DNA of 62,990 bases, filler included, from Hausera hauseri (Eukaryota): the NCBI GenBank assembly GCA_046269625.1. It is 12 parts of 12 records of this genome, joined end to end, with 100 filler letters (N's around TTAATTAATTAA, not from the genome) between each part and the next. Parts side by side here need not be neighbours in the genome. Positions count along the whole stretch, not along the records: positions 30,196 to 34,708 come from JBJURY010546675.1; 11 more parts are not named here. One strand, 5' to 3'. The position numbers were made by a program, and so were the translations under genes. Under the pieces are notes generated by a model. The model did not search any database and was not told the DNA's origin. It was given only the letters and a program-made list of their open reading frames with translations. This document shows, one piece after another, positions 10,344 to 53,354 of the stretch (its first letter is position 1; the number at the start of each line of letters is the position of its first letter).

Positions 10344-10348
10344 GACAA

Positions 10349-12013: not shown

Positions 12014-13785
12014 ACATTTAGAAAGCCTTGTGAGGGAACAAAACTGTAGTAGTAATATACCGAAACGTAACTACAGGTGGATACCTTAACATACTCGCTG
12101 GGGATGGTTATATTATGTAATACTGATGGAATTCATGCTACTTACATGAATTTTTGTCTTCATTCACAACTATGATGATATTAATTATCGATATAGTTTT
12201 ATATATGATTAACTTACTTATCGGTTTAATTTTCAGCCTATGTGTTTATGAATTTTTACAAACTTTATGTGTTTATGCCAATATATAAAAGAGAAATAGT
12301 ATGAGCTACGTATGGAGATGACATGTGGCACATGAGGACTTAGGGACTAACTCCATAAAAGTCGGTTACATGGCGTGTGAATACAGAGCCTCCACATAAC
12401 CGATGCGCAGAGTAGTGAAAAATGCTGCCAGAAGTGATGCATAAACAGGGTCCGTCACTCAAGAAATGGGTGATATTCATCATAATTGCTATTATTAGAA
12501 AAAAAGTACATGTTCACACATTAGAAATTTTGCATGCTCTTAGGTAGTTCACAAGTCATTGGTTATGACAATCTGGATCGAAATTGTGAATGTAAATTGA
12601 ATTTTTTTAATAAGTATTATATAAACTGTGTGGGAAAGACAACGTATAGCGTGGTTGACTTGTAGGTTCAAGATCTCAGATGATGATAACTTGATTGACA
12701 ATTATCAGACTGACAATTATCATGTGTAATCTGGAGGACTTTTAGATTTTGACAGAAGGAAAAGGAGAAAACCTGAGCAGAGGATGTATCGTATCCACAT
12801 GAAGAATTAATCTGAGAATCAATAAGGGATTCTGTTATTCTAACATTACATAGGACGATCAATCCCAACAGAGTGTGAAATTCATCAGCAACGGGGATGA
12901 GCGGTCGCTAGAGACGGTACCAAAATTACACATTTTATTTGTACATGACCATATATCATACTTATGCTATGTTAAAGGATTGATGTTTTGATTTTTGTTG
13001 TTTGAAATTTTGATGACATAATGGGTTATGAATTCACAACGTGATACCTAATCGATTTTCGTTTCCATTTACTTTGTTTATGATAAATTAACATGGGGCG
13101 AAATTAGACACGAGATGAGGAAATGAATGTCCGAAGTCACCAATTAAACACTGAAGCAAAATGAAAGAGTCATTACAGCCAACTCAAAAAAAAAAAAGTC
13201 TACATTCCAGTGACTCATGGTCACGAATCAGATAGAAGATGTCGAAAACTCCAATTTTTTTTTACTATGATACACAGATCATTACAAGCCTGAGTGGATG
13301 AGCATTATTGAATTATTTCTGTTGCCATTGATTTTTGCTATATAATTGACATGTGTTTTATATGTATAACGTTGGATTGTTGAAGATTAAGATATGTTTT
13401 TTTAGGACGTGACATAAATTTGTGAATTATGCTTTTGATTAATGAGACTGACATAGAACTTTGACATTGTAAGGACAGGAATAAGGCTATGAGTGGAAAC
13501 AATAGGTAGAAATGTAAACCACATGGATGTAACATGACGAGTAGAAGACTTTAACCAATTATAAGTCTCCTTAAGGAAGGGTGGGATATGTAGTAGTATC
13601 GATGTGGAAACCAATTAAATTATTTAAAAATTTAATTTAAAAACTCAAACCTAAAGTCAGAAATACAGCGAGGAAAGCACAGAAGAATGGATAAAGGAAA
13701 ACCATACGATTTAATGGGACTGAAATATATAAGGGACAGTTAGTTACAATCTAACTAAAAATAGCTCCGATTAACTATAACAGAA

Positions 13786-17700: not shown

Positions 17701-18745
17701 GTGCCTTGTTGTCAGCCTTTAATTGAGTTATTTGTTGTTGTAATGCGTTTTGCTGTGTATCGTTTGGTGTGATGATGGTAGAGATAAGTGAGGTAGTGTG
17801 CATTTTGAATAATTCATATGATTTATCAGCTAACTCGCTTAGTTTGTTAAGATATAATGATTCCTCAACAACGGTTAACGGGCCCCTCATTTGTAAAGGT
17901 AAAGCGTGGAGAAAATAGCGTCTTAGGCGATCTGCGTTGTGTTCCTGTGTTACACCGAGTGCCTTTAAGTTCTTAAGGGCTATTTGTAAGAATTCGGAGG
18001 GCTTTTGATTGCTTAGGGTGTTCTCGTTGAAGTAACGTTGAATAATAGAATCCAAGGAAGGCTCTGTAAGCCTAAGAACGGCGTTATGTAGCTCCTTGTA
18101 AGGATCAGGATATTCGAAGAGTTGTAAAAGATTAGGTATTCGAGTTTTGACTGAATTTGGTAGATAGTAAAAGAGGCTATGGGCTTTTGAGAGAGATTCG
18201 TTGATGTTTGCAGATGTGATGGAATTGAAGCCAGGTTTGTCTTGAGTTCTGATTGTCGATGAAGAATTCGGTACATTGGTGTCCGAAAGGGAGACCGGGA
18301 GGTGTGACTGTACCGGCGCAGCGTAATATTGGAATAGATTTTGGCTTTTCCGTAGTGTCAGTGGAGGATGGGGAGTTCATGCCGCCGAGGATTTTAAAGT
18401 TGATATGAATAAGAAAAAAAGTCTGTCTGAAGTGAAGAAGATCGTAGAAGTTGTGGATGGTGAGACCGTTGTAGGATAAGAAAAAACTAGAGGAACCTAG
18501 CAGGTTGACAAGGTGGTGGTAGATGCGTGTTGGGTCTAGTGTGTCCTTTTATATGTATGTATATGTTTTTGTTGTTGATTAAAAAATGAAGAGAAAGATA
18601 GGGGGTATGGGCGACGGATGGGCACTGCGGCGCGTGACGTAAACACGCCCGGCGTCCGGACGGCGCCGGCGTGGCGATCTCTGGGCGGCCGAACCTCCGT
18701 AACCAGGTCCGGCAGCTGCCCGACGGTCTTTGCGGTGAAAGGTGT
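14706..18745 (-). mobile_element. Decayed Ty3/gypsy LTR retrotransposon, CsRn1-like clade (gag-PR-RT-RH-IN)
   Basis: Gag with CHCC boxes; protease FLINTGAAASLLP (D to N); RT WASPLH, RPCGDYKQLN, KAYHQIP, YIDD; RNase H TDAS; integrase VHLDIVGPLP. Confidence 0.93.
17317..17358 (-). promoter_or_regulatory. gag-pol -1 ribosomal frameshift signal
   Basis: In-frame A AAA AAC immediately before the gag TAA, followed by the stem GCTAGAG...CTCTAGC. Confidence 0.75.
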
Positions 18746-19426
18746 TGTGGAGATTAAGGATGTCGTATGAACAACTTGGACCACTTGAGTGTCCAGTACG
18801 GACAACATTTTATTAGGTGGTGGAACGACGCCTTGTTGCACGAAATATGCAACTTGATTGGGTGTTGCACTAACTTTAAAATTTGAAATAACCCAAGAAA
18901 CTTCCTTTTGGGTTTGGAAGTCACCTTTATCCTGATGCTAATGTATGAGTAATGTGAGCTGACAGTCAATGACATTTTTGGTTTGTTCTTGATTTCCGGG
19001 AGTAATGTTTGACAAAACCCAAACAGCTTCCTTGTTGATTTCTTTTTTTTGAATGTTGCAGCAATTGTGAGAAATGAGATAATGCGTTGTAATTTAATTT
19101 GTATTGCGTTTGTTCGTCAGTTCTCGTTGCACTATTACCGACTGCCCGAAATGCAGCCGTTTGCACTTTTACGTCATTATGTGACAACAGTGGTACTAAA
19201 ATCCGAACGATATCAGCATCGATAACCATTTGTATTTGGTGATTTCCTCCGTCAGTTAAATAAGATAATTTCGAAACAATATCGACCAAAATATTAGAAT
19301 CTGGACTGTGTATAAGATACCACAATACGAGTAGCAATTCGCCGACAGTTAACATGCTAGGAGATTGGTCTTTGTTACGGCGGAGACTGACGGTAACGCA
19401 CGTAACGTCTCGTAAAAACGTTATTG
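18746..19426 (-). pseudogene. KPNA3: Importin-alpha (alpha-3/KPNA3-4 type) intronless frameshifted fragment
   Basis: [73 protein letters not shown] across frameshifts (ARM repeats). Confidence 0.9.
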
Positions 19427-19904
19427 NNNNNNNNNNNNNNNNNNNNNNNNNNNNNNNNNNNNNNNNNNNNTTAATTAATTAANNNNNNNNNNNNNNNNNN
19501 NNNNNNNNNNNNNNNNNNNNNNNNNNATAGTAAACTATACCGGACTCCAAGGCGACATACTGTCCGAAAAAGAAAGATTAATATATAATATAGCACGGAC
19601 CATGAAAACTTCGAGATTTAAATTATCTAAAAGCACCCTCCCGGACAAAACAGTGATTGACAGAATTATGGCAGATAATACAACGGAAGAATTAAGGAAA
19701 GTTTTGATATATTTGGCGGTAAGAACCAACCCCCACCGAGAAAACGAATTTGAAAAGACAATTGGATTGGCTAGAAAAGCTGCGAGAAGAATAACTAAAG
19801 AAGTAAAGTGGACTAAATTTTTTGAAAAAGAGGAAAATGTAAAAGGGACTAATAAGTTAGAAGATATGATACGAAATATCTCTTTAAATAGAGGCAATGA
19901 ATCC

Positions 19905-22024
19905 AATTGGTTAGTCAATCTACTAACAATAATGATGCTAGTGAAACAGCTAGGAGCAGTCACTATCTACGACTGTGATAAATTCAAGATGGGTCAAAGA
20001 TATTGTCTAATGGATCTGGAAGCGTGTGAAGATACCAGACCACACAAGTTAGAAACAAGAGAGAGAAATTACTTCTTGTACCAGCAACAAGAACTGATAT
20101 CGCTAGACGGAATGGAATGCATGTTGCGACGATCTCGCAGTATTTTTCACTGTGAATTAATGCACGGACATTCTTCAATAATCAAACCAACGATCCCTCC
20201 AATTCCCATGAACTTGGTACGGCAGCACTGCAAACAGGCTAAAGAGACTGGAAGAGTACATTGGGACAATATGGAATTAGAAATGCAAGCGGACAAAATA
20301 ATTAGGGCGTACAAAGTTGTAGCCGGAAGGTTAGACATGCACAATGGACACTGTAGTGGAGCTGAATACGATACTGGTAAGGGATTAGAACCAAACGCAG
20401 TAGTTGTGGATTTCTACGAATCGGAAATGCGATCACAAAAGGTAATGTTTCATAGCGTCACCAAGTTATATACGGAACACCAAAAATGTCATTTACAAGA
20501 TGGAACCTGTGCTTTTATGAGCTCGGTTACAATATGGGAACCGCCCTCAGGAAGAAGTTGTAAGTTTATTAAAATTAAAAAACTACAGTTTAATGAGACC
20601 ACCGGCAAGCGATACGTGGATAAATTGGATACCAACTCAAGGACGCACGAGGCTGTATTAGAACATCCTACGCCCATCATATTAATCTCACGTTGTGATG
20701 TGGTAATGTTTGCTACTAACTACGAAGAGTTCTTCGTAGCCGAAACTGAGATAAATGCGAGGACTTATAAGTTGGAAACACAAGATATCAGGATTGAGGA
20801 CTATCTAAAGAATAGAAACGATTATTTTTATTACAAAGGACAAACTGGAATAACTGAGTTATACCACAAAATGATAACGAACGACTGTAAATTGGATACT
20901 GAGATCATTAGGACAAAACTGGCTCTTATATATGCCAATCCAGAATCGGCTTCTCCAATAATTCCTATGATAGAGGGAATCTTTGGTCGAGTTACAGGCG
21001 AAGTATGACTAACTTACTAATGTGAAAAGAGAGATGTACCCATAAATGTAGAAGAGAAACGCTGCATCCAAAACACTCCTAGACTAGCTACACCATTGAT
21101 GAGAGTATTATTGGATAATGCAACCCAACTTACTATTCTTAAAGATTGTAAAGCGAGCTTAGCAGAGCCCATGTTTAGGCCTAGTGAGACAGAATGGGTC
21201 AGTTTACCGAATGGAGGTATTACTGCCACCTCATACAAATTAACATAAACAAATCTGGCGAAAGGAATTACGGACGACAAATTTCAGGACACTTCATCGA
21301 AAGGCATATATAGGCCTAAAGAGATTAAAGCCTTTAGACAATTCCTCGCTTTTTTACGACAACGAACGCATGAATTAAACCGAGCCATGGCCTCTGTGGT
21401 AGACGATACCTAATATCAGGCTAAGTGGGAATCTCTACTTGGCGCTAATAACTACCAAAGAGTAACTTCGGAAATATTGTATAAGATTTGAGGAAGATTT
21501 TTAATTTTCGGAAAGCTGCATCTGGATTTTTAGCCATCTACTTCTTAGTCCAGTTAGTTAAGGCCGTCTTACAAGCTATCATTAACGGATACGAAATATT
21601 CACATTAACCAGATTCTCCTGTAAGGTTTTAACTGCAAGTATTATACCCTTTGGGAAAATGCTCAAGGCCTACGAGGAAAATCAATGGAAAAATGATGTA
21701 AAACGCCATGTTGGATACTATAATCGCAAGCGACGAGGAAAACCTTCGATATTGTATAAACGTAAAAATAAGACAACAGTAACACGCAGGGATGATTCAG
21801 ATGATGACGAGCCTAAGGGAAGAGATGTGAATTGCAGAATGAAGATGCGCAAGATGTATTCAGTAATTAACGCGCCATTACCTATAATGCGGCCAACAGC
21901 ACCAATATATGAAGACTGTGACCGCAAATCAATCGTATCATGTCGGTCGGAAATCTATCAAAAACCGTCTAATTACGAAGATCCTTATGAAAAAACAAAA
22001 CAATATGGAGACTACGGAAAATAA
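19905..22024 (+). pseudogene. env: Chuvirus-like / gB-type class III fusion glycoprotein with internal signal peptide, TM anchor and cytoplasmic tail
   Basis: Ordered motifs YDC, CMLRRSRSIFHC..HGHSS, AGRLD..GHCSG, C..DGTC..TIW, C..D..I..KL..NP, GEV..Y.C, GIY, W(TGA)GRFLIFG and a TM (FLAIYFLVQLVKAVL) match chuviral G. Several stops after 21008 and a frameshift near 21512. Confidence 0.85.
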
Positions 22025-22029
22025 ATGTT

Positions 22030-24758
22030 ATGTACCAAGGACCAACAGAAAACGACCACGGAATATTGTACTCAAAAAGGATACCGCGCCACATAGAATC
22101 GGAATCAACAATCTGGGGGAACCCGAAACTGTGTTCGATCTCAAGTTCACTACCCCAGGAGCCGCTCATTGACAGTCGCGTTATTGAAATAATAAATAAC
22201 AATTTGTATCCGAATGGAGAATTAAGACAATTAAGGCAAGATATCATTTTATCGCCAGAAATAAAGATAAACGGACACAGAGTCTCTACTATAAAACGGT
22301 CCAAGATAGTGTCAAATTGCTACGGAACAGTAGCAGAAGGGAGACCTTTCGCTAACATACACATCGAAGATAGGGAAGTGTATGCGTTAATCGACACAGG
22401 ATCAGAAAAATCATTTATAAAATATGAATCGATACCAACCACATTTGGGCAAGTATCGAAGCCGAAATTTAAATGGACTCGTACCGTTTATCTAATGGGC
22501 CGAGCACTTCAACGTGAATTCGAGGTAATGGACCAGTTGTCAGACAATGTAGTACTAGGTTGTGATATATCAAAACAGATACCAGGTATGGCAATCGATG
22601 TCCATAACGGAAAATTAATTGAGCTGGAACCAATTAATAGGACAAAAATAATAAAGGAAAGGAAATCGGGCGAAGTATGGATTCCAGTAGATGAGGACAT
22701 CCCTCCCAGAACTGAAATGATAATTTTTGCGCAGATTCTTTAGGACGAAGATCTACCAGTACATTTTGAACCTCAAGAGAATATCGATCCAAATCTCATG
22801 ATTAGCAATATTCTATGTAGAATAGTGATGGGACAAATGCCTATCAGATTAGTGAACAATGCACCAACTACCGTACGATTGCATGCTAACACTACTCTAG
22901 GTCACACTTGTAGAGTATGGGCAATAACAATAGAAGAAAAACCATACAAATGCACAGAATTTCCACCTCACGTCGAAACCAAATTCTCTCCGGAAGAGTA
23001 TTGCAAGTTCTACGAATTATTATGTAAATACAGTTCGATAATCGCACAAAATGAAGAAGATATAGGTAGAGCAAAATCTTTAAGGTTAACAATTCCATTA
23101 AGGAAGAAACCCGGCTCAAATGACAAGATTGATCTAGAAGAACAGAAAATGCCCAAGTGGTACCAGCCTCCTCATTCATTGAGACCGGAGATAACTAAGG
23201 AAGTAGAGCGGATGTTGAAGGCCGATATAATTTGACCAATCTACCGATCGTGATACTCTTCTATACTTATGGTTAAAAAGAAAGAAACTAAAAAACATAG
23301 GTTTTGTATAGATTATCGGGCATTAAACACGTTGATGAAGAAAGACTCCTTTCCCCTACCGTCAGTAAAGGAAGCTTTAGACAGACTATAAGGAGCAAAA
23401 TGGTTTACCACTCTCGATTTACAATTGGGATACTGGCAGGTGGAAATCGAAGAAAAAGATCGATATAAGGCAGCGTTCAAAACACACGATGGCGTATACG
23501 AATTTAATGTTATGCCTTTCGTCATCACCACAGGACTAGCTATTTTTACTAGAATGATGAATAAGATGCTCATGGGACTTGATCATTCTTTTGCGTACTT
23601 AGACGACGTGATGATAGCATCAAATACGGAGGAGGAACACTTAAAGGATATTGAAGATACCCTCATGCGACTAGAACAAGCGAGTTTGAAACTAAATCCA
23701 AAGAAATGTAAATGGGCACAAAATGCAGTATCGTATCTCGGACACATAGTTGGAGAAGGAGAATCAAAACCGGACAAATCTCTACTAAATAAGATATCCG
23801 ATTACATGGAGCCGCAGAATCAAAAGAAATTAAGACATTGGTTAGGCCTATGTGGATATTATGCCACTTACGTACCAAACAATTCAAAAATTAACGCGTC
23901 ACTATATTGCCTACTCAAAAAAGGAATTAAGTGGAGATGGACGGAAGTGGAGCAAATAGTCTTCGATGAAATGAAGAAAGTTTTGACAAGTGAACCAGTT
24001 TTAAGATACCTGGATTTTAACCTGCCATTCATGATTAAAACAGATGCAAGTAAAGAAGGCATAAGATACGAATTAGCTCAAAAACGAGAAGGCGAAGAAC
24101 TGAAACATCCAATAGCTTATGGTGGACGCTCGTTAAAGAAAGCAGAAAAGAATTATTTAGTTACCGAATTAGAAACGCTAGCCGTTAAGGAAGCACTACG
24201 ACACTTTAACGTCTATGTCTACAGACAAAAGATCATAATACTAACCGACCACAAAGCTGTTACGACATTAAAAGGACGAGCTAATAACCCAACATGTAGA
24301 TTAAACAGTTAGATCGAGGAAATCTCACGATATAACATTGAATTTCAATACAAACCGCGGTAATAAACACGTCGACACCGACGCACTGTCAAGGTTAAAG
24401 ACAAAAACGAGTGCAATAACCACACTAAAGAAACCATAACTCGAACAGCTGATCGAACGACAAAGAACTCTGATATCGGATAAGACAATTAGAATTACAG
24501 CAGAGAAAGCTAAAGACACAGTTATTCAGCAAATTATCGAGTTCGTCAAAACAACAAAACGCCAAAAGGACGGCAACTGAAAAGCATCTACAGAAACACG
24601 GACATAAATATCGCGCATCAAACCAAGATAACACCCTGTATTACGAATGGAAAGGAAAAAGATTAATAGCCATTCCAAAATATTACGCACCGAAGTACTC
24701 ATGGCTGAACATGACTTGTATTTAGCTGGACACATGTCTTGGAAGAAGACATTGGAAA
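22030..24758 (+). pseudogene. pol: Pol: aspartic protease, RT, RNase H, integrase N-terminus
   Basis: ALIDTGS at 22393; [19 protein letters not shown] at 23596; IKTDAS, ELETLA, TDH, DALSR; EHDLYLAGHMSWKKT. Mostly one frame with stops. Confidence 0.95.
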
Positions 24759-28589: not shown

Positions 28590-28811
28590 AAAGAAGGGGG
28601 AGGGTTGTCAGTGTGTCCCCTGACGAACACAGTAAGTTCAAATAAATTAAGTAAAGATATCGGCAGCCCAATGGTTGCTACAGACTGACAAATAATAATA
28701 AAAAGTGTGAAGAAAGGAGAACCTTCAAACAGTGAAAGAAAGACAATAAGTTTAAGGTTGTAAGACCAAATTTCTACACCTATAAAATTATCACTGGGGC
28801 CCCGAGTGAGG
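28590..28811 (+). repeat. PPT (28590-28604) - ~188-bp LTR (28606-28793, TG...CA) - PBS (28795-28811)
   Basis: AAAGAAGGGGGAGGG-t-TGTCAG ... AATAAA ... TTATCA-c-TGGGGCCCCGAGTGAGG, with gag ~130 bp downstream. Confidence 0.65.
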
Positions 28812-28911
28812 TGACACACTGACGTATAACACTCGAAGTAGAGTTAAAGCTAATATTACAATTTCACGCACTGATTCAGCAAGGAGTAGCTCTGAATCAA
28901 ACGAAAATCCC

Positions 28912-30095
28912 TTGATTGAACCAAATATAGAAAGGAATCCAATGTCTAGCTTTGGAATAGGAACTGGCTCAAGTACAACTGGTACAATGATACTTCCGAT
29001 GGGTAAGTTCGAAGGAAAACCGGACCAAGATAATAATAAGTTTTTAGTGCAATACCAAATGTATTCACAAAATTTACATGGTCAAATGAGCTCAGGATAC
29101 AACGTCTTCCCTTACATCTTAAAGGAATAGCACTTGGTGCTTATGCTCAGCTTACGGATGATGATAAGGCTGATTGGGCTAGCCTTAAGGATGCCCTGGA
29201 AGAAAGACTCTTAGTAGACCCATCGGGAAAAGGTCGAATAAGAGAGTTTAACAGGCGACGACAAAGGAAAGGCGAAACAGTGCAAGAGTTTGCATGTGCC
29301 CTTCAAAAGCTGGCTCAAAGAGCTTACACAGATGTTGATATAAGGGAAGATGCCCTCCTAGCTCAATTTTGGCTATGGGGTTAACAGGGAAATTCAAAAT
29401 TATATTATTGTTGCTGACCCTGACACTTATAAAGAAGCTATTAGTAAAGCTAGAAAAATTGAGTTAAACTATGAAAGATTGGAAAATACTAAAAAGCCTC
29501 CTAAAACGATGACAGAAAGTTAAAAAATTTTCAGTCGAAGAAAAATTCCCAAAAGCCGTCTTATAAAGTCCAGAATCAAATAGAACAACAGCCGAAAAAG
29601 GTTACGTAACAAGAGATCAACCTCAAAAATCTGCGATGAAGAATCCAACGGTTAACCAGAATGGACAACCATTATCTTTCGCTTGTCAAAAATACGGACA
29701 TATGGCTCGCTTTTGTCCTAACCAAGGATAGTTAAGTCAGAAGAAGAAAAACGTTGATATAGTAGGCAATATATCTGATACGGATAATGAACACGTAACT
29801 ACAGATATAGAACTTAAAGAAACAACTGAAAAGCTACAGTTGAAGATGAAATCTAAATTAAAAGAAGGCAAAACCAATACAGTAGAAGATGAAGATAAGA
29901 CAGCCGAATTAAAACATCTGTACCTTGAATTAAAGGAACAACAAACTTGCGAGAGAAGACAGAAAATGAATGATGAAAGTTCAGTCATTGCTCCTATAGG
30001 TAGACCCAAAAAGACTCCTACATCAGGATCAGATACCAAAAAGAAAAGGGCCAAGAAAATGGATAAACCTTTGATACAAGAAAAAGAATTGAAGA
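28912..30095 (+). pseudogene. gag: Ty3/gypsy Gag (CA and zinc knuckle) plus start of a downstream charged region; relative of the gag at 30.5 kb
   Basis: KFEGKPDQD, RLPLHLKGIALGAY, RRQRKGETVQEFA, knuckle VNQNGQPLSFACQKYGHMARFCP (compare VNRNGNLVCFTCGKGHISRSCP). Confidence 0.85.
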
Positions 30096-30373
30096 NNNNN
30101 NNNNNNNNNNNNNNNNNNNNNNNNNNNNNNNNNNNNNNNTTAATTAATTAANNNNNNNNNNNNNNNNNNNNNNNNNNNNNNNNNNNNNNNNNNNNTCTAC
30201 AAATTTTATTTATTTCTTTCATATTATTTTTTCATTTCCAACATATGGTTTTATTTCTAAATCAATATATTTTTATGCAGCAACTGTGAAAACACTAATA
30301 AAAAAATAATTTTGCAACCACCAATGTCTAATATTAACAGAATATATTTATAATTGAAAGATTTATGCAACTT

Positions 30374-30433
30374 AGGTGCTATTTACAAACCACTATAGCG
30401 CTATTTACAAACCACTATAGTGCTATTTACAAC
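30374..30433. repeat. 22-bp tandem repeat, ~2.6 copies
   Basis: gctatttacaaaccactatag(c/t) repeated. Confidence 0.8.
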
Positions 30434-30499
30434 AGTTAAAACGAAAATTAAATGGGGTATATAAGGCTATTGAACGGGGATAAGTAACGCAACCTTTAA

Positions 30500-31770
30500 T
30501 CCAGAACAAGCATTGATAAGTCAAAAGCAAACCGTGTATTAAATGATAATTCACCTATACGTGAGACACGTCGAAACATATCTAGAGATATACAAAAAGT
30601 AGATAAACGTTCAAATTCAGAGAATAGAACCAAATTTGACGTTACCGAGCAGAATAAGCAATTTAAAATTCCACTTGAGAAGCATAGAATAACGAAACCA
30701 AATTTAGAGATAAATAACGTAAATAATTTGGCAGCAGATGACCCACCAGTAGCGCAGAAAATGGACATCTTTACCTTTGACTCTCTGAACTTGCCGGCAT
30801 ACGATGGCGACCCGGACGGGCTTAACGAATTCTTGAGAACTTATAAATTGCACACAGAAGTGCTAGTCTCACTCCTGAGGTAATGATTAAACGCTTGTCA
30901 TTATATTTGAAAAATGTAGCCGCTGACGCTTATAGTGAGCTCACAAATGATGAGAAAAAATCCTGGTCCTCCTTGGTAGGAGCATTAAACAGTAAATTAT
31001 TACCGACCGTAACTCCGCAGCAGAAGCTTATGGCGTTTCAGAATAGAGTACAACGAAAGGGTGAATCAGTAACCCAATTCGCATTTGCGTTGAAGAAGCT
31101 TGTAATAGTTATATAAACACACTACGTATAGCCAACGTAGCTAGAGCCAAAACGGATGCGGAACGCGAGGCCGCAGAAAAGGCAACACCACCAGATCTAG
31201 ATGTCATGATGACGACTCAATTAATCTATGATATTTGGTCACGAGATTTGGTTAAACAATTAATTTTGGCTAGACCTGAAAACTTTGAAGGAACTCTACA
31301 GTTAGCTCAAGATTTAGAAATGGCACTCGACAGATATGCCAGACACAACGATAGAAACAACAGAAATAATTATCGAAGTGATCGTAACGACAGAAATCGG
31401 AATGATAATCGTGGAAGAGAAGATAGACGATTTACGGGTATTAAAAATTATGGGAATCGAAATAATCATAGCAGTTACAGAAATGGCGGAGGTAATAATT
31501 ATACTAATACGAAGAGATCATATTTTAACTGGAATAGGACTAGAGGAAATTATAAAGGCTCAAACTACTCGAATCAAAACGGCGATAACCAAAATAATGA
31601 TAATCGACAAAATGCAGGTAACGCGCAAAGTTTGTCAAATCAGTATAATAAAAGTATGAACAGATCTAAGTCACCTGTGAACGAAGATGGTCGACAAAGA
31701 GTCAACAGAAATGGGAATTTAGTTTGTTTTACTTGCGGAAAAGGACACATTTCAAGATCATGTCCAAACC
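30500..31770 (+). pseudogene. gag: Ty3/gypsy Gag (capsid, Asn/Arg-rich linker, CCHC-type knuckle)
   Basis: LPAYDGDPDGLNEFL, RLSLYLKNVAADAY, RVQRKGESVTQFAFAL, CFTCGKGHISRSC at 31725-31763. Confidence 0.88.
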
Positions 31771-34708
31771 CACGTAGCGTTTCATTTACTAAGCCGAACA
31801 AGACTAGTATGATCAGAACTAACGAAAATTTAGAAGCAAAGTATGGGGTTCGCGGTGATACAGGCACTATCATTGACATACAAGATTTACGGTGGTTTCT
31901 AGACGCTCAGCCTAAATCCAATAACCCACAAATTTTGATGGCTAGAAAAGAATACAGAGATAAGCTGAGACTACTAGAGGTATATCATGGTATAGTAGAA
32001 CCAGAAACTGACTATGAGCATGCGATTTCCCCTAAGCGAATTTATATGACACGGAAAAAGAGTGTTCCGACAAGTAATAAACCATCTGATAAGCCAGGCA
32101 CATCGACAGAAGTCGACTTAGATGCAGAGCCTGAGCTCACAGTTGAAAAGATAGAGAAGCCCACGAATGACGATGCAGCAGAAAAAGAATGTATGCAACC
32201 ATTAATACTTAAAATTACCAAAAATAGAGGCCGTAGCCCTTCATTAAAAACAAAACGTAGAAGCCGTTCACGTTCAGAAGTAACTAGAGCGAAAATAGCA
32301 GAAATGAAGGATACGAGCATCTCGGTAGGAAGCGACGTAGCACAAAACTTAGAAACACCAGAAGTCGGCCCATTTACACCTATCGAAGTGAGAGAACCTA
32401 AAGAGTTAGTCAATGAAATTAACGAGATTTGTCCACTTCCCATTAGTGAGGAAGAAACGGTAAATACCGACTATTCTGATCCAAAGAAGTGGAAAGTCCT
32501 ACGCTCATGGAAAAATGCCGATGAGCTAAAGGAAATGAGAGTTAGATGTCACGATCCAGAAATACTACAGCAAAATTTGGAAAGACTTAGACAGATTAGC
32601 CAGCAAGTAGATATATCTGGAAAAGAACAGCAGTATGCTGAGAGACTATATAAAAGTTTGAAATTATATAGTGAAGGGAAACTTACAGAAGCAATCGACT
32701 TAGGACAATCGGAAGATGTATCACCTCAAACATTGTCAAAATGGGAGCATGAGTTAGAATCATGGATTAAAAGAGGAGTAGAATTTTCGGAAGGATGGAG
32801 CCAAATAGAAGATAGTGTCGACGCAAAAGTCACTAAAGCTCAGACGCTATTGTCAACCTTAGAAGCAAACCCAAAATTAAAGAGTGTGGTCCGAAATTTA
32901 GAACGTATGATGGATGAAATTCGTCACGCAATAATTAATCGGCTTAGGGAAAAACCGGTTAACCATCGAAGTAATATCAATTTAGAAATATTGGGCATAG
33001 ACCCTATATATATTCCCCCTTTGACGGCGATGATAAAAATCACCTTTGGTGTACCCAAACAATATACAAACCTAGAAAATTGAATTAAGATAGAAAGTGA
33101 AAGGCGAGCGCAGATTTATAGTTTGAGAAACCGGATTATGTTTCCAAACAACGAAGAAAACAAAGTACGTAGTAAAAGCTTGTATCATAGAATTTGATGA
33201 ACATAAGGACGAGTTTAGCTATGTCGGCTGGATTATGGATTTCCTAAGAGGGCCGGACGATGAGTTGAAAGATGCATGTAAGATGCTAGATAAGACTATA
33301 ATGACAAAGCCAATAATCTCAAATCAGTTGTCGGAATGGTTTGAATTAGTAATATGGTTAAGCAATTTAGTGGGAAGTCGTAAGAAAGAATTCCAAGAGA
33401 GCGAGCTTTCTGTAAAGAAATAGTTAGAAGAAAGCGCGCGCAATTTAGACACAGTACTAACATAAATCGACATCGAACGCGATTTGAAGCATTACGACGA
33501 CTCAATTTTATGAAAAAGAAACAAGAAGCGACGATTCTGGAAGAGATATGTAAAATGGTCGAAGAGACGAATTTTACAGAAAAGCTGAATATGACTTGCA
33601 ATTTTTATCCAAGATTGAGAAATGTCCGATTAGAAGGAGTTCAACATTTAACAGAGAAACCTATTGACGAGATCTCTGTCCAAGACATCGAAACCTTAGA
33701 CATTTGTCCGGAACACCGAGCCACTTTGACGTACACGATAAAATTTTAGCACAAGCCACAAGAATAGATGGCCGGATCAGATCAGAATTTCCATACCGAG
33801 TTGATAAAGATAAGAAACGATCAACATCTTAGTGTTCAATAATCTAAGTTCGTAAAGAAATTGCTGGATGCAATAGATCCAGACTCAAAAGCCTACTTAT
33901 TGGTATCAATGGCAGAAATTAATGACGAAAGGATGAGACAACTGATGCAAAAATTACAGCAAGTCGAAGAGACGTACATCAGAACAAAACAAAGAGCATC
34001 TAGGCTAGATGAACTGGCAAAAGAATTCGAAATTTACCGAAACAAATATGCGTTATCGAATCAGAGATTAAAAATAAACGAGAATTCGTATAAAGATGGC
34101 AAAAGATGTAATTATTTAATTAACATATTATCACCAAAAAGGACTCATCGAGTCTAACAAATTCGGCGAATTACTGAAAATGATTCGATGTGACTGTGGA
34201 AACGGAATAGGGTTCCGAATTGCACAGATGAAGGAAATACAATCAAGACTAAAAAAAATTACGGAAAACGTGAAACGAACAAATACAGCCTTGGTAGACT
34301 ATGGACTTCCAGACGACGGAAACGAACCCGAATGGGATGCATACTTTGTCGCGATACTTGCCGAAAAGCTTATGACTCCAGTACAACTAAATGAGATAGA
34401 AATATGTCTGCAGAACAGGAGATTCAATGTGGTGATACTTCTGGATTCGGCGCTAGCTGAAAAGAGTTAATCGAATTAATTAACGTAAACATTACTGGAA
34501 GTAAGTTAAGACAACTTATTCCAACATTAACTAAATTATCCAGTAAGAATAGGATTTATAGCACGGTGCCGAAACTTTTGATTAGGAAATACGCTAAATT
34601 CTTAAGGGCTAAACCAGAAGTAGCGATAAAAATATTGGTAACATCCGAATGGATGGAGGAAAAAGAATGTGAGCTAACTACATATTTCTACGGAAAAGAT
34701 GTAAGAGA
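31771..34708 (+). pseudogene. Gag-fused ~1000-aa unknown region X (copy 1), ending in the N-half of a ubiquitin-like domain
   Basis: In frame with the knuckle in ORF 31206-33083. Collinear with 49479-52217 (RSWKNADELK.MR.RCHDPE, GPDDELKDA, QDIETLDI, LVDYGLPD.GNEPEWDAY, SEWM.EKECELTTY). Confidence 0.85.
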
Positions 34709-35934: not shown

Positions 35935-36760
35935 TAGATTAACCCATTTTGTCGAACTGATGGCATTAGTGGACCAAAAAGCGTAGACTGGCAGAAGCCG
36001 TAGTAAGGAAAATCATCTGCAGATACGAACCTCCTGAACAAATTCTGACAGATCGAGGAAGGAACTTTACGAGTGAATTATTCGAAGGGATTACCAAAAT
36101 ATTTGAGATTGAACGATTAACCGCAACTGCTTACCACCTGCAATGTAACGGAATGGTCGAACGGATGAACGCAACCGTTATACGAATCTTATCAATAGTA
36201 GTTGCGAAAGACCAGAAGGATTGGGATGAATTCTTAGAGGGTACACAGTTTGACATAAACACTACATCACATCCCTCAACAGGATTTACTCCATTTTTAT
36301 GATGTATGGTAGAGACGCTGTACTACCCACGGACTTATGAATAATACCATATACAGTAAAAACGGATAATCTAATACTAAACTTTGTTAAATTGTTGCAG
36401 ACGGGATTACGCAAACGATGGGATATAGCCAAAGAATTGTCCAAAAAATATCAAGAGCAATTTAAAAGGCAATATGATAATAACGCTATACCATATGATT
36501 TGGAGAAAGGAAACTGGGTTTATGTGCATTATCTGGTTGCGAAGAAAGACAAATCTTTAAAACTAACCCGAACTGGCAGAGGACCTTATAAAATTATTAG
36601 AACCACACCAACTAAAGTCTATATTAATAAAAATGGCAAAGAGGTCGTATCCATACAAAGAGTGGTCAAAACGGAAATAAGGCCAAATAAACGATATAAT
36701 CTGCGTTCGACTGAGAAAAATCCAAGTCAAACCAAGAAAGAAAAGAAAACGTCATCGATA
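35935..36760 (+). pseudogene. pol: Ty3/gypsy integrase core and GPY/F C-terminus
   Basis: PEQILTDRGRNFTSELF, TAYHLQCNGMVERMN, QKDWD, STGFTPF..YGRD, RGPYKII, RYNLRS. Confidence 0.93.
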
Positions 36761-37910
36761 GTAACTAGACCGATATCATGTGCACAAATAATTCTTGAAC
36801 TATCGCTAATCGCTTCATATATACCAAGTGAAAAAACACAATGAATACTGTGTTTAGTAGAATATAACCACGGAGTTATGCCATATTTCGCAACTGAAAA
36901 AGAACAACATGCAGGAAGACGGCAAGACATACAGAATTTACAGTTGCTCAGAGTCTACGATATGAATTCAATAAAACACTGCGCCTGGTTTAAGACAAGC
37001 GAATCTGTTAAGAACAATGTAAAATTTCAGATTATATTTGTGGATCAAACAAGTTCTAGGATGAAGACATGTGATTTTCCATATGGACCCTATCAGAAAT
37101 GTTGCGATTTAGATTTCGGACGAACATATTAATATAAATTTTAGACGTTCTATTATAATCTGCCTGGAGCCCAAGCCTATATAACTACCGAATTGGAAAT
37201 ACAAATGCCTCAAGGTAACGACACAAGTTAAGCCAAGACAGATGATATAGTCCGAAATACCGATCCATTTAAGAGACTCTTAGATTATAGCATTATTGTG
37301 AACTCCAAAGACTTTGAAAACCAATGTATTCGAATTAAGAACAAAATAGAGTTGCATGGAGATAGACGAATTTCCATCCGATTCACAACGACACATAAAT
37401 CAACCCCTCCTGTGAAATATTGTTATATTGCGCGAGAACAACAAAATCCGGGCTGCAGGATATCTTTGGATTATGAATACCAAATGCAATTTGATTTGTA
37501 CAATACATACCCGAACGAACCGAGTACTTATTTAATAGTATATCGTCCAAAAGTCGGAATATGGAAGATTTCCTTCCCAACAACTACAAGAAAACCGTCT
37601 ACCATTCCAAGTACGACTCGCACCACTAATATTAATACTTCGAGTAAAATGACCGATAGAGAATTGGAAAACATACATGTTAAAATTTTGGCGCGACATA
37701 ATAGAATTGTATTTTATGTTGAAAAAACAGTGGATTATGAAATTAAAATCGAATGTCGTAACTTACATACCAACAAAATTGTAATCTTAAGGAAGAATAG
37801 TCAGAAAATCGAACGTAAATCTCTACGATGACAAAATGAGCATATAATTCAAATGACCGCAATGGTAAGAGACATAAAACTCTTACAGTACAAAGTCTTA
37901 ACAACGAAGT
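36761..37910 (+). pseudogene. In-frame post-integrase extension: signal-like segment, beta-rich Cys-containing (FN3-like) domains, Thr/Pro linker
   Basis: ORFs at 36392, 36878 and 37298 share one frame. AQIILELSLIASYIPS; KTCDFPYGPYQKCCDLDFGRTY; PTTTRKPSTIPSTTRTT. Confidence 0.6.
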
Positions 37911-41911: not shown

Positions 41912-42541
41912 GCTTACAGCATTCACACTAATTAAACAGAAACCAGAAAATATTTATTACAGAACCAAAAAAGCACCAGGAGAGTGAAACTTTGGGTTTT
42001 ACAACGAGCCCTCCAGCATCTACCCTACACAATGGAAAACCATCAATTGACATCATGGAAAAAAATAGACGTCCATCATAGTGTGATGAAGCTACAAACA
42101 GGAGGGTTATAAAGGAGAAATCTAACACTAACATTAATTAAGAAAACAAAACACTCAAGTCTTCTGTTCAAACTTGGTCTCATTTTCTCCCATCTGTAAA
42201 ATGTTTATAGTAACAATCATACAACACAAGACCATTCATCTTTTATTAAAGTGTTGATTACAGAGAATTAGTTTAAACTGAATTCTAGGTCAACTGTAAA
42301 ATGTTCCAGCGCTGGTAAACATTCATCACCATGGTAACGAACGGCTATGTCATCATACATGTATCACAGTCAGCCAGAACAAATACTATGACATCACTCA
42401 TTACACAGCAGTTTTCAAAGGGATTTAACATTAAGTCATATTGCTCTCAACTCAGTTCCGAGGTGCACATTTCACTGAAGGTATTTAGTAGTTATTCTTC
42501 AAGAAGCAGATTACTGTTGGAAGCAATTTGTTCCAAGTACA

Positions 42542-44410
42542 ATGATGAATAGTTCCACACAACAACCGACCGAGGACAGGTCGGACCAAATAAATGACAA
42601 TGATGACCGATTCAATAAGGACAAGTCGGACCAAATAAATGACAATGATGACCGATTCAATAAGGACAGGTCGGACCAAATAAATGACAATGATGACCGA
42701 TTCAATAAGAAAGACAGCAAAAGAGAAAGTCTTTTGTCCAATGTTGAAGACAGGAGTCAGCGTAAAGAAATGGATGTTCAGAAACTAATTAAAAAGCTGG
42801 AGGTAAAATGCTTCAAGTTATCTAGCAAGAATAAAGAAGTTACGGCCAAACTTGAACAAAGTAAGGCAAAAGTTGAGCATCTGGAAGGTCAGTTGCGAAA
42901 CACCGAACAAACTCTTGCAGAAAAATCAAAGACTCTGATGCTTGAAACTGCGCAGAGACGGGACCTGGCTGACAACGTGGCAGCACTGAAGGTGTTCCGA
43001 GAACGAGCGCTGGACGCAGAGAAACAGGTCAAAGAGCTTATGGACGAGAACCAAAGACTCAAAGTGCAAGCAGACTTATCGCAGCAAAAAGCAAGATCAT
43101 CTAAAAATGAAATGGAGGCTCAGAAAGTTGAGCATAAAAAAATGACGGATCTCTTGAGAATTAAAGACAACTTGAACGACAATCTTAATGTTGCATTGGA
43201 AGCAAAAGAAAAGGAAGTGGATGCTAAGACAGAGGAGCTTCAGAAGCAACACAGAATTATGGAAGAGGCTGACCGTGAAGCAAAAAGACGTCGCCAAAAT
43301 GAGGCAATGATTTTACAAAGAATAAAACGCAAAGATGACGAAAATTTAAGTCTACGAAATGAAGTGAGATTACTGAAAACGGCTTTGCTTGACGTCGAGA
43401 AGAGCTTGAGAAAGAGAGATTTGAGGCATCAAAAACTCCAGGAGAAATTTGAAAATGTCCAGTCAGAGAAAGCACAATTTGAAGAAGAAAACAACACCCT
43501 GATAGATGCCAAAGAGAAACTTGAAAGAAAGGTTCTGGACAAACAAGCACATCTGCAGAAGTCCCACAAAAAGATTACGTCTTTAAAGAATAAAGTGGAG
43601 CAAGTCAAGATGAAACTGGCTGAAGCGATTAATATCAGCAAAGAAAACCAGATCAATTTTGAAAAGGAAATCCTGGGCGCAAAAGAAGATTGCAAAAAAG
43701 TAGAACTACAGAGAGAAGAAGCTCTGACTAAAAACAGAAGGGCCACAGAAACTCTTCACTCATATGAGAGGAAAATTGGCCAACAGTTTTATAAAATTCG
43801 CCAACAGGAATCTCAGATTACAGAGCTCTCTAAGGAGGTTCTGAAACTCCGTACGGAAGAGGAGAAAATTAAGAAGATAGAAGATGCTTCTTGTAAGCCG
43901 GAGATATTATTTATAGTGGAAGAGAACGGAGAGGTCGTATTTATCTCAGAGGACACTCGCAAGGAGCAAGTTGGAACGCTTCGTGCATGTAAGCTCAAAT
44001 TATCCACCAAACTAAAAGAGATGGGGAACGAAAATATGGCGCTCAAGCATGAGGTGGAGAAGCTGCAGCAAGTGGTGAAGGACCTCGAGTGCAAGGTAAG
44101 CCGACAGCCGGAAGACAAAGGCCCAAGACTGAAAGAAAGTCAGACCCAGGTTAGAGCTCTGAAGGAGCAGGTACAAATCCAAGAGGCAGAAATCAGCTCC
44201 TATGTGGCAAAAGTAAAACTGCAAGAAGAGAACATTTATAAGCTGAGAAATGACTTGGGAAGAGCCACATTTAATGTGAAAAAGAAGCTTCCACAAATTA
44301 CTCCTCAGTCAAAACACGACAAAGTAAATACTGAGGATACCATAAAAAAATCCAGGAACATCGTTTATCTGCCGCCCATCCAGAACAACTCATTTGGAAA
44401 GGGCAAATAA
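42542..44410 (+). CDS. Intact intronless 622-aa coiled-coil protein, teleost-like context
   Basis: Uninterrupted ORF rich in K/E/Q/L heptads; no catalytic motif. Confidence 0.75.
   Translation: MMNSSTQQPTEDRSDQINDNDDRFNKDKSDQINDNDDRFNKDRSDQINDNDDRFNKKDSKRESLLSNVEDRSQRKEMDVQKLIKKLEVKCFKLSSKNKEVTAKLEQSKAKVEHLEGQLRNTEQTLAEKSKTLMLETAQRRDLADNVAALKVFRERALDAEKQVKELMDENQRLKVQADLSQQKARSSKNEMEAQKVEHKKMTDLLRIKDNLNDNLNVALEAKEKEVDAKTEELQKQHRIMEEADREAKRRRQNEAMILQRIKRKDDENLSLRNEVRLLKTALLDVEKSLRKRDLRHQKLQEKFENVQSEKAQFEEENNTLIDAKEKLERKVLDKQAHLQKSHKKITSLKNKVEQVKMKLAEAINISKENQINFEKEILGAKEDCKKVELQREEALTKNRRATETLHSYERKIGQQFYKIRQQESQITELSKEVLKLRTEEEKIKKIEDASCKPEILFIVEENGEVVFISEDTRKEQVGTLRACKLKLSTKLKEMGNENMALKHEVEKLQQVVKDLECKVSRQPEDKGPRLKESQTQVRALKEQVQIQEAEISSYVAKVKLQEENIYKLRNDLGRATFNVKKKLPQITPQSKHDKVNTEDTIKKSRNIVYLPPIQNNSFGKGK
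42572..42708 (+). repeat. 45-bp coding tandem repeat x3
   Basis: D(R/K)SDQINDNDDRFNK repeated three times, nearly identical at DNA level. Confidence 0.95.
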
Positions 44411-49302: not shown

Positions 49303-49478
49303 GCAATCGGTTGGGGAAAAGTGCAAAAGTGCCCTTAGCAACGGTGCCCTTAGGCACCGTTGCTAGGCACTCTATGGATCGGTAGTGCACAGTGTTCACT
49401 ATCGATCGGCACGTGCAAAATCGATTTATCGATTACCCCCTCCCCGGGGTGGGACCGAACCGCCATTTTTACACTACT
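49303..49478 (-). mobile_element. Polinton/Maverick-like terminus abutting region X
   Basis: Minus strand starts AGTAGT-GTAAAAATGG. Internal hairpin TAGCAACGGTGCC..GGCACCGTTGCTA. Homologous to 61292 onward. Confidence 0.45.
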
Positions 49479-52400
49479 GAAGAGAAATTACAATTAATGG
49501 AAGTTTTTCACGGGCCAGAAACCGAGAATGAATATGCACTGGCACCAAACAATACTAATATGGGGCGGAAAAAGCCTATTCCGCAAGGAATAGCCCAGTT
49601 AGAGAAACAAATGACACCTCAGAATATAGATTTAGACGCCGAAATAGAATCCGGAATGAATAACCCAGATGAAACGACAGATGAAGTCGAAAGTGAATTT
49701 ACTGGGCTCTTAGTTCTCAAAATAACAGAACAAGAGCAGAAGCCCAACGCCTAAGAGGGGGTCCAAGACTCGCTCTCGGTCTTCCGTTCAAAGGGACTCG
49801 GAAGAGAAGATTTCTATACTGTTACCTTAGGTGATGATTTGCTCTCAAACACTCCTATTATGCCTAAAAAACCTTCAGAAACGTTAGAAACACCAGATGT
49901 AATAAATATTAATGACGAAATTAACGAGATTTTTTCGCCTCCCACTACTGAGGAAGAAACAGAAAATAGTAATGATTTTGACCAGAGGAAATGGAAATTT
50001 CCACGCTCATGGAAGAATGCCGATGAATTAAAGAAAATGAGAATTAGATGTCACGATCCGGAGGTAATCTAAAACAATTTAGAAAGACTTAAACAGATTA
50101 GCAGACAAGTAGATATATCTGGTAAAGAAGAACAATTTGCGAAGTTATAAAAGTTTAAAATTATGTAGCAAGGGGAAGCTCGATGAAGCAATCGAATTAA
50201 GACAATCCGAAGAGGTATCACAGGATACGTTGAGCAAATGGAACCAGGAATTAGAGTCATGGATTAAAAGTGGAGTCGAATTCTCAAATGGATCTAGTAA
50301 AAACCAAGACTGGATGTAAAAGTTGCTAAAGCACAAACGTTACTATCAACCTTAGAAGTTAATCCCAAGTTGACAAGAGTAATCCGTGATTTAGAACGCA
50401 AGATGGATGAAATCCGTTATGCAATGATCAACCGGCTTATAGAAAAAAAGTCAGCAATCGAAAAGATATCGATTTAGAAATATTTGGTATAGACCCAGTA
50501 GATATTCCTCCCTTGATGGAAATGATAAAAATTACCTTTGCCTTACCCAGACGATGTAAGAATTTAGAGAATCGTATTAAAATGGAGAACGAAGAGATCA
50601 CAGATCAGTAGTTTGAGAAATCGAATTATGTTAATGAATAACGAAGAAACCAAATACATAATAAAGGCTTGTATCATAAAATTCGATGAACATAAGGATG
50701 AGTTTAACTACGTTATCCAAATTATGAATTTCATAAAAGGTCCAGACGACGAATTAAAAGATGCATATAAGATGCTAGACAAGGCTATATTGGCAAAACC
50801 AGTAATCGCCAACCAGTTGTCAGAATGGTCCGAGTTAATAACGAGATTAAGCAAATTAGTAGAAGACCGTAAGAAAGAATTCCCAGAAAGCGAACCATCT
50901 GTAAAAATGCAATTAGAAGAAAGTGTACGTAACCTAGATACCATACAAGCAGAAATAGACATCCGAACACAGTTCGAAGTATTACGACGTTTAAATTTTA
51001 TGAAGAAGGAGCAAGAAACGATGATATTGGTAGAGATTTATAAAATGATCGAAGAAACAAACTTTACAGAAAAACGAAATGGCTTGCAATTTTTATCCGA
51101 AATTAGCAAACATCCAGTTATAAGGAGTCCAATACTTGACGGCTAAATCCATCGACAAAATTTTAATACAAGATATCGAAACTTTAGATATTTATACAAA
51201 ACATAGAGTGGCCATGGAAGAAGCGATGAGGTTCATATGTAACCCACACGAATGTATGCCTGGAACAGATCAAAACTGTCATACCGAGTTAACCAAAATA
51301 AGAAACGAGCAACATTTCAGTTTCGAAGAAGCTAAATTTGTAAAGAAATTGCTCGACGCAATGGATCCCGATTCAAAAATCATAAATGAGATGTGAGTTA
51401 ATCTACTTATTAGTAGAAATGGCAGAGATTAACGATTAGATGAGACAACTGATGTCCCAATTACGACAAGTTGAGGAAACATGCATCAGAACTAAACAAA
51501 GAGCAACAAGGTTAGACTAATTAGTAAAAGAACTTGAAGTCTATCGAAACAAACATGCTTTCACCAAGTCAGAAATCGTAAACAAATGAGAATTTGTGCA
51601 AAGATGGCAGAGATGTAATTATTGAATTGACTGATTATCACCAGAAGGGATTCATCAATTGTAATGAATTAGACGAATTGCTGAAAACGATTCAGTATGC
51701 CTGTGGGAACGAAATATGTTTCCGGACTATGCAGATGAAGGAAATACAACCAAGATTGGAAGAAATTCGGGAAAATGTGCAAAGAACGAATACGGCCTTA
51801 GTAGACTATGGACTTCCAGATGTTGGGAATGAACCGGAATGGGATGCGTATTTAGAGGCGATAACGGCCGAAAATCCTATAACTCCAGTACCCCTAAATA
51901 AAATAGAAGCATATCCGCAGAACAAGAAGTTCAATGTGGAGATGCTCCTGGATTTAGCACCAACCGCAAAAGATATAATCGAGCTAATTAACGTAAACAT
52001 TACTGAAAATAAGTTAAGACAACTTATTCCGACCTTAACTAAATTATCTAGTGAGAACACAATTTACAATACGACGCCGAAACTTTTGATAAAGATGTAT
52101 GCCAAAATCTTCAGGGCTAAACCTGAAGCAACAATGAAAATAAAAATATCGTCCGAGTGGATGGACGAAAAAGAATGCGAGTTGACCACTTATTCCTTCG
52201 TAAAGGACGTAAGAGTGGTTAAGGAATAACGGTGGAACGAACGAGTCAAATTATAGATTTTATTTCAGAGGTAGAATACTAGACGATTTAGAACAGTTAA
52301 TAGACGTCGGAATTATACCCGACGAAACAAACAGAATAGTGGTAACAATAACCAACGAACAGACTAAAGAAGCCACACGTAAAGCAAAGACAGAACAATG

Positions 52401-53064
52401 TGTAGGACAAATCATGGGAGTTCAAGACGCCGCAATTTATTTCGATTATTTTCAAACAGACGAAGACAAGGAACAATATGACAAGAATTTAGTACCATTA
52501 AGCATAACATTGCCAGCTGCCCCGAAACAGACGGCCAGTAGGTAAGCCTAGGAAAATTCGAGAAGACGTCGATCACAACTGAGAGCTAATTAGAGAATTG
52601 AGACAGATGTCAATTCCCACTTTCAGTACGGATAATGAAGAATTAATTGAATTAATGAGGAATCTAATGCGAATCGTGAATTATTCGAGCCTTCGAGGAG
52701 ACGCATTAGATGACAAAGAGAAAGTGATATTTAATGCAGCTAGGAGAATGAGGAGCTCGCATTTTAAGTTATCAAAGAGTAACCTAACTGACGATGTAGT
52801 AGTTGAGAAAATTATGGTGGAGAACACGACAGAAGAGCTAAGGAAAGTATTCTTGTACTTAGCAATCATGACAAATCCTAATGGAGAAAATGAATTTCAT
52901 CGAGCTACAAGCTTGGCGCGACAGGCGGCTAGGAAGCTTCCTTGCAAAGTAAGTTGGCCAAAATTATTTGATAAAGAAGACAAAAGGATCAGTAGTAACA
53001 ATAGAATTGAAGACATCTTACGGAACTTGACGACAACGGATAATAACAACCAGAAGAATGAATC
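49479..53064 (+). pseudogene. Region X (copy 2) including ubiquitin-like domain and pre-env segment
   Basis: Collinear with 31970-34708. IVNYSSLRGD...ENTTEELRKVFLYLA..TNP..ENEF is collinear with 19527-19904. Confidence 0.88.
52134..52350 (+). pseudogene. Ubiquitin-like domain (one frameshift near 52215)
   Basis: MKIKISSEWMDEKECELTTYSFVKDVR/(E)WLRNNGGTNESNYRFYFRGRILDDLEQLIDVGIIPDETNRIVV aligns without gaps to ubiquitin 1-71. Confidence 0.75.
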
Positions 53065-53354
53065 TAACTGGTTGATCAGCTTACTCACTATAATGATGCT
53101 AATAAAACAGATAGGTGCTGTCACTCTATGATTGCGATAGATTTAAGCTCGGACAAAAATATTCACTAATGGACTTAGAGGCGTGTGAAAAACGCCAGAC
53201 CACACAAATTGGAAACGAAGGAGAAGAGTTATTTCCTATACCAATAACAAGAATTGATATCTTTGGACGGCATAGAGTGTATGCTGAGACGATCTCGTAG
53301 CATTTTCCACTGTGGACTAATGCACGGACATTCCTCGATAATCAAACCAACAAC
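53065..53354 (+). pseudogene. env: Signal peptide and N-terminus of chuvirus/gB-type glycoprotein (copy 2)
   Basis: NWLISLLTIMMLIKQIGAVT-LYDCDRFKLGQKYSLMDLEACE...CMLRRSRSIFHCGLMHGHSSIIKP. Confidence 0.9.

Follow-up and report, generated by a model that had tools for sequence, protein, structure and literature searches.

A conserved, mostly orphan region between Gag and a gB-type Env in decayed Ty3/gypsy elements of Hausera hauseri

In a contig of Hausera hauseri, the reading frame of a retrotransposon Gag runs past its zinc knuckle into a long region, here called X, and the question is what X encoded and what kind of element carried it. The window (the whole 62,990-nt stretch of DNA that was analysed) consists of 12 contigs linked by 100-nt N-linkers with a six-frame-stop core, and neighbours across these linkers are not meaningful. 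The contigs are 4-5 kb long and truncated. Copy 1 of X fills the right part of contig 30196-34708, and it stops at 34708 because the contig edge is there, which is not its natural end.

Order of Gag, X and Env in overlapping contigs

The following features define the element; P0102 is an intact relative whose sequence is compared with X further below.

30683-31110, plus strand: Gag capsid region in several broken frames (Pfam Retrotrans_gag and P0102 match)
31065-33083, plus strand: 672-aa open frame containing the late capsid, a basic region, the zinc knuckle and 437 aa from the start of X
31722-31769, plus strand: single CCHC zinc knuckle (Pfam zf-CCHC, PF00098, E 0.0015, under the curated cut-off)
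49482-53068, plus strand: copy 2 of X, on contig 49303-53354, reaching 850 nt beyond the end of copy 1
19527-21005, plus strand: third relative, with the X end, a signal-like stretch (19911-19967) and a gB-type Env in one 493-aa open frame
21500-21670, plus strand: Env end with a transmembrane-like stretch at 21527-21583 (PF24664, E 4.3e-7; hydropathy 2.11)
22336-24285, plus strand: protease, RT and RNase H after Env (RVP, E 3e-5; RVT_1, E 1.8e-32; RNase H, E 3e-28)

Pfam Retrotrans_gag (PF03732) matched 30877-31110 with an E-value of 4e-4, which is under its curated cut-off, and the capsid region 30683-31110 aligned to P0102 at residues 20-81 (E 0.026) and 87-160 (E 2e-10). By these weak Pfam scores and the P0102 Gag match, the Ty3/gypsy combination of a Gag capsid and a CCHC knuckle is present in the X element. 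The open frame 31065-33083 starts in the second half of the capsid, crosses the knuckle and enters X uninterrupted. The preliminary description had X fused in frame to Gag past the knuckle, and this is confirmed for the first 437 aa of X. After 33083, copy 1 is broken by stops or frameshifts near 33081, 33165, 33270, 33420-33475, 33750-33850, 34055-34120 and 34460. The length of Gag-X is ~1,600 aa.

The order Gag, X, signal-like stretch, gB-type Env, protease, RT and RNase H was obtained from three overlapping contigs, which are distinct subfamilies (69-75% identical) and none of which alone spans Gag to Pol. Env lies between Gag and Pol by a chain of overlaps, from copy 1 to copy 2 (75%) and from copy 2 to contig 19527-24758 (69% identity). 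On the latter contig, Pfam Monjiviricetes_fusion (PF24664) matched 19527-21005 with an E-value of 1.8e-26, and Pol has the order protease, RT, RNase H, with the integrase beyond the contig end. X is in frame with Gag in copy 1 and with the gB-type Env in contig 19527-24758. X had been placed where the protease normally begins, but the protease instead follows Env, and X sits between Gag and the gB-type Env. This Env, of the class III/HSV-gB type, is bounded on both ends by hydrophobic signal and transmembrane stretches. Hydropathy maxima were 1.76-1.94 for the Env signal and 2.11 for the Env anchor, and at most 1.21 inside the X pieces; X has no strongly hydrophobic stretch before its last 20 residues. 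Judging from its sequence, the X element is a Gag-Env-Pol Ty3/gypsy errantivirus, a layout that has already been published.

In sequencing run X1, which may be the window's own source, 10,758 contig pieces mapped to contig 30196-34708 at 80% identity or more. Summed depth, which is not a copy number, was 554-12,477 in the X bins, 2,580-13,761 in the Gag bins and 18-72 in the left flank, so that the ~300-nt flank is barely covered, unlike Gag and X. The run X1 coverage shows a large diverged family behind Gag-X. The run search returned no RNA run with the element, and one matching run was listed.

Several other features were noted in the window. A second Gag with a knuckle-like motif lies at 28810-29730 (plus strand); over 76 aa it shares 46% identity with the X element's capsid. 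Between protease and RT, the stretch 22620-23000 (plus strand) aligns to P0102 inside a single HSP and has no Pfam hit, and this is the position of the dUTPase-like domain in Burro. Armadillo-repeat fragments (18536-19424, minus strand; Pfam Arm, E 8.6e-15; importin-alpha-like by eye) lie directly upstream of a same-strand Gypsy-like gag-pol and may be a host-gene capture. A run of ORFs interrupted by stops (789-6573, plus strand) looks like the accessory genes of a decayed retroelement; it includes a RING finger at 5980-6570 (plus strand; Pfam E 2e-7) and, by eye, another RING-like motif at ~5200-5350. An ORF at 10899-11243 (plus strand) opens with a signal-like stretch and has, by eye, the look of an F-type Env start. 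At 35970-37831 (plus strand), an integrase-like fragment recognised by eye (MLVIN_C, E 0.038, weak) is followed by an unannotated ORF. A 45-nt unit occurs three times close to the start of an intact 643-aa coiled-coil-like ORF (42479-44410, plus strand), for which Pfam gave nothing, and 53455-57532 is a 67-bp satellite array of ~60 copies.

Extent and conservation of X

X and its counterpart in copy 2 are divided as follows.

31771-32414, plus strand: N-terminal low-complexity linker of X with an Arg/Ser-rich patch, weakly conserved
32415-34380, plus strand: conserved core of X, ~650 aa (dN/dS 0.16), with no relative or fold match
34467-34634, plus strand: helical bundle and start of the probable ubiquitin-like domain, aligning to P0102 539-598
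51894-52220, plus strand: copy 2 bundle and first half of the probable ubiquitin-like domain, aligning to P0102 521-622
52216-52365, plus strand: rest of the probable ubiquitin-like domain of copy 2, in a different frame (Pfam and PDB hints)
52583-53068, plus strand: copy 2 conserved 160-aa region immediately before the Env signal
53072-53128, plus strand: copy 2 hydrophobic signal-like stretch closing X, then the Env start (hydropathy 1.94)

Because copy 2 overlaps the third contig, which holds the X end and Env, the length of X from knuckle to Env signal can be estimated at ~1,260 aa. The preliminary description was right that X is a long orphan region, but its ~1000 aa was too short. The two copies are 75% identical across 2,321 nt and collinear from 31959/49482 onward. 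They are not collinear throughout, as had been thought: 31771-31958 has no counterpart in copy 2 in the alignment, and the linker 31959-32414 has only 36% amino acid identity over 141 codons (uncorrected pN/pS 0.53, pS 0.80). The first ~640 nt of X are thus far less conserved than the remainder. Basic patches are found close to the X start and the X end.

Many of the differences between the copies had been seen at third codon positions, and the count over 740 codons agrees (133, 118 and 276 at positions 1, 2 and 3). From blocks of at least 45 nt, in the frame with the fewest stops and with one 32-nt block omitted, dN/dS was 0.158 (bootstrap 0.12-0.21; 740 codons), while the two alternative frames gave 1.00 and 1.15. 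The chosen frame has 7 and 5 stops in the two copies, and the alternative frames have 48/47 and 87/94. The purifying selection proposed for X was thereby borne out by the codon alignment. Since both copies hold stops and frameshifts, this selection acted on active ancestors. The region 52583-53068 is 53% identical in amino acids to 19527-19904 (pN/pS 0.31, pS 0.85), and it is conserved even with synonymous sites near saturation. These results support the conclusion that X evolved under purifying selection as an element-encoded protein.

A module shared with an intact relative

P0102 is an ENA/MGnify protein cluster of 21 members with a single 3,771-aa ORF. It was found by an RT-region search of long proteins and is the sole carrier of a same-family Env among the 120 of 289 matches listed. 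In it, Gag is separated from Env by a linker of ~400 aa, and Env is followed by protease, RT, RNase H, integrase and a further C-terminal part. The window Env is 29% identical to that of P0102 (E 6e-53), and the window RT-RNase H is 42% identical. In a 32-row RT tree, built from 31 of 134 hits and the window RT, the latter has a long branch, belongs to no supported set and is not grouped with P0102. P0102 differs from the X element in additional protease-like domains (the protein has three such stretches, of which 3082-3179 lies after the integrase) and in a long C-terminal extension of ~600 aa with hydrophobic segments.

When 12 pieces of X were compared with the P0102 linker, two matched above all 500 shuffles, each a copy of one and the same module (34467-34634 to P0102 539-598, z 10.0; 51894-52220 to P0102 521-622, z 8.5; 0/500 shuffles in each case). 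The remaining 10 pieces did not match the linker (z at most 1.9). With a linker of ~400 aa sufficing for P0102, most of X is lineage-specific and unexplained.

The module consists of a helical bundle and, behind it, a probable ubiquitin-like domain. It was modelled on P0102 503-688 plus two window rows, not on the window copy alone, and in this model the bundle is confident (pLDDT 67-89) and the second part, strand-strand-helix-strand-strand-strand, has a pLDDT of 31-42. The window half-domain 52216-52365 hit Pfam ubiquitin with an E-value of 0.02, under the cut-off. Against PDB, ubiquitin chains made up all 18 of its hits at 2.6 bits per repeat, with E-values that are inflated because of the repeats. 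The corresponding piece of P0102 matched GABP-alpha (E 0.0096), in a domain that we take to have a ubiquitin-like fold. The fold-search rows listed for the module model contained no ubiquitin-fold entry. The second half of the module (52119-52365 in copy 2) is therefore described here as a probable ubiquitin-like domain.

For the bundle, Foldseek with the P0102 module ranked LEDGF IBD chains first (probability at most 0.96, E 0.14-0.15) and gave no matches at E 0.001 or below. In a second look with VIA, the first 11 rows were TFIIS-N/LEDGF/LW entries or 5n88, whose residue numbers correspond to the LEDGF IBD, with Z 7.9-8.9 and identity of at most 26%; in the best rows the rmsd was 1.7-2.6 over 70-80 residues. 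VIA carries a warning that Z below ~13 for helical bundles may reflect a common arrangement, and in the wide VIA search the TFIIS-N/LEDGF family, with 10 of 50 rows, was tied with HEAT/ARM (importin 13, Z 9.0). No LEDGF/TFIIS-N sequence match was found in Pfam or PDB with the window pieces or the whole of P0102, in shallow queries of 1-3 sequences. The predicted bundle best matches TFIIS-N/LEDGF integrase-binding domains (Z 8-9), and this identity is only a lead because HEAT/ARM repeats tie with it.

The rest of X, ~900 aa, has no relative or fold match. A single-sequence model of 32415-33164 was all-helical with a pLDDT of 44, and a fold search with this model found no match. A word-index search with 31770-33080 among longer proteins confirmed none of 7,101 candidates, and HMMER with 32415-33080 against 1.84 billion representatives gave no matches. 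ESM Atlas returned no usable match to X, with low recognition. Pattern matches to X in metagenome contigs were confirmed in 0 of 128 and 0 of 146 cases. With the frame of X-tail and Env, 0 of 5 IMG/VR viral contigs and 0 of 3,181 longer proteins were confirmed. These blank homologue searches are weak evidence, because the libraries contain few animal transposon proteins. PDB sequence searches with the window alignments gave noise only; sulfotransferase, UFD2 and ISG15 (E 0.08-1.7) were discarded, as alignment A4, used as the query, had one misaligned row. Pfam and PDB searches on the pre-signal region 52583-53068 gave no informative match. A BCL2-like reading of this region, which was based on the position in Burro and on eye only, was not adopted.

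All domain assignments within X stay below curated cut-offs. X had been described as free of recognisable motifs and mostly helical-looking. The former holds for the matchless ~900 aa but not for the module common to P0102, with its weak ubiquitin hit. As for the latter, the first ~250 aa of the core were predicted to be all-helical, at low confidence.

Possible roles of X and relation to known elements

We think that X is probably the decayed, once-selected middle of a Gag-X-Env-Pol polyprotein from an envelope-carrying Ty3/gypsy retrotransposon, likely a membrane-tethered spacer with small host-type interaction domains. From what is generally known of membrane polyproteins, Gag-X would be synthesized in the cytosol. 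The terminal hydrophobic stretch of X would thread Env into the ER, where signal peptidase would cut, and Gag-X would remain anchored in the Env-bearing membrane, so that X would take the role that the matrix protein has in retroviruses. Env's own transmembrane helix would bring the chain back to the cytosol for Pol, and the element protease would later release the pieces. The ubiquitin-like domain and the bundle may have host targets (factors of turnover, transcription or integration), comparable to the cargo proposal for Burro.

X may instead have been a purely structural protein, matrix- or tegument-like and possibly captured from the negative-strand RNA virus lineage of the glycoprotein, that would line the envelope and bridge it to the capsid. 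X directly precedes an Env of the Monjiviricetes-fusion family, it is large, helical-looking and conserved, and it has the basic patches near its start and end. However, no viral family was found in Pfam, among the 1.84 billion representatives (32415-33080), in IMG/VR (X-tail/Env) or in PDB, the sole recognisable pieces of X look host-like, and P0102 retains just the small module. We therefore regard a purely structural X as unlikely. The preliminary description had suggested a matrix/tegument-like protein; neither sequence nor fold searches matched one (the model, with pLDDT 44, covers part of X), and the suggestion survives solely as a functional analogy, that of a membrane tether. The host-like look of these pieces, together with the decayed copies and short contigs, would also suit a gene captured from the host or a second transposon nested here, with a conservation unrelated to the element, but the frame of X continues those of Gag and Env, the depth of run X1 is alike over X and Gag and low in the left flank, the same module is at the same place in P0102, and no host homologue appeared in the word-index and HMMER searches. 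This origin is very improbable, and an ordinary host gene or a different nested TE is not supported, given the Gag-like coverage in run X1 and the place of the module in P0102.

In a narrower reading, what matters most in X is a TFIIS-N/LEDGF-IBD-like domain, which would steer integration or transcription by binding either the integrase of the element itself or elongation factors of the host. LEDGF IBD chains top the Foldseek list, the family fills the first rows of the second VIA look, and the bundle, the confident part of the model, is also what a distant relative has retained of X. Set against this, the Foldseek matches are insignificant, HEAT/ARM ties under the Z warning of ~13, sequence matches in Pfam and PDB are absent, the fold was predicted for P0102 and not for the window copy, and only ~75 of 1,260 residues would be accounted for. 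We consider this quite unlikely. The same low probability attaches to its boldest form, in which an enveloped Gag-Env-Pol lineage encodes a LEDGF-like (TFIIS-N) integrase-binding domain of its own. Placed next to a ubiquitin-like domain and maintained across distant elements, this domain would hold integrase or RNA polymerase II elongation factors as a built-in version of the host cofactor borrowed by lentiviruses, and the other ~900 aa of X would be one or more new folds.

The spacer reading of X can be compared with known elements. The Gag-Env-Pol layout has been published (Burro; Chary and Hayashi). Burro/GYPSM1 are giant Ty3/gypsy elements of planarians, and the single ORF of Burro encodes Gag, Ubi2/SUMO-like, BCL2 and mononegavirus-like Env domains, all ahead of the protease, as given in the available part of PMC6431247. 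Like Burro, the X element has putative accessory domains that lie, in frame, between Gag and a mononegavirus-like Env ahead of the protease. A ubiquitin-like domain at this place would be a further likeness; the hints of it are consistent but weak, with none past the cut-off and no match in the fold searches. Of the single-ORF trait of Burro, Gag-X and X-Env are in frame in the window and the Env-Pol junction is broken, while this junction is intact in P0102. Unlike Burro, which has two or three zinc knuckles, the X element has one; no MATH, BIR, ankyrin or BCL2 hit was found in the scanned X pieces (Pfam, and PDB for the pre-signal region); and Gag-X, with ~1,600 aa, is far below the size implied by the 4,873-5,140-aa ORF1 of Burro. 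The position of BCL2 before Env is occupied in X by the conserved 160-aa region, for which Pfam and PDB gave nothing. The Burro features in the available part of PMC6431247 do not include a TFIIS-N-like bundle. Within a known architecture, X makes for a small variant of the Burro type whose content is mostly orphan, with the TFIIS-N/LEDGF likeness as an unproven lead.

Errantiviruses with the order GAG-ENV-POL and a gB-type Env, such as Smed_errantivirus_1-6, have been described from nematodes, bryozoans and flatworms (PMC13524379, available part). The X element is like the Smed_errantivirus_1-6 group in gene order and Env class, and its Env domain I-II pattern resembles, by eye only, the Platyhelminthes C1a rows in the accessible portion of supplement 2 of that paper, which makes a flatworm host probable. 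In contrast to those elements, the copies here are decayed. The spans of 14.8-18.0 kb with flanks, taken from the part of PMC13524379 at hand, would leave room for inserts of the size of X. The words 'ubiquitin' and 'matrix' do not occur in its main text, as far as that text was available, and the Gag-Env spacer is undescribed there; its bait sequences or figures may already include X-like regions.

P0102 and the X element share the arrangement Gag, linker, gB-type Env and Pol and have the bundle and ubiquitin-like module in common, and they differ in the length between Gag and Env (~1,260 aa in X, ~400 aa in P0102). Of the TFIIS-N family (LEDGF/p75 IBD, Elongin A, IWS1, LW domain), the predicted bundle superposes over nearly the whole domain; the likeness is one of predicted fold only, with the HEAT/ARM tie and no match at the sequence level.

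Gag-Env-Pol elements are known from several invertebrate phyla, and outside Burro the stretch between Gag and Env is undescribed in the available parts of PMC13524379 and PMC6431247. Because selection acted on X and its module occurs in a distant intact element, intact copies in nature offer a way to study this stretch. Our literature search, which covered no subscription journals, found no description of self-encoded integration targeting of the TFIIS-N/LEDGF type. If the bundle is truly of this type, it would give these elements a self-encoded route for targeting their integration.
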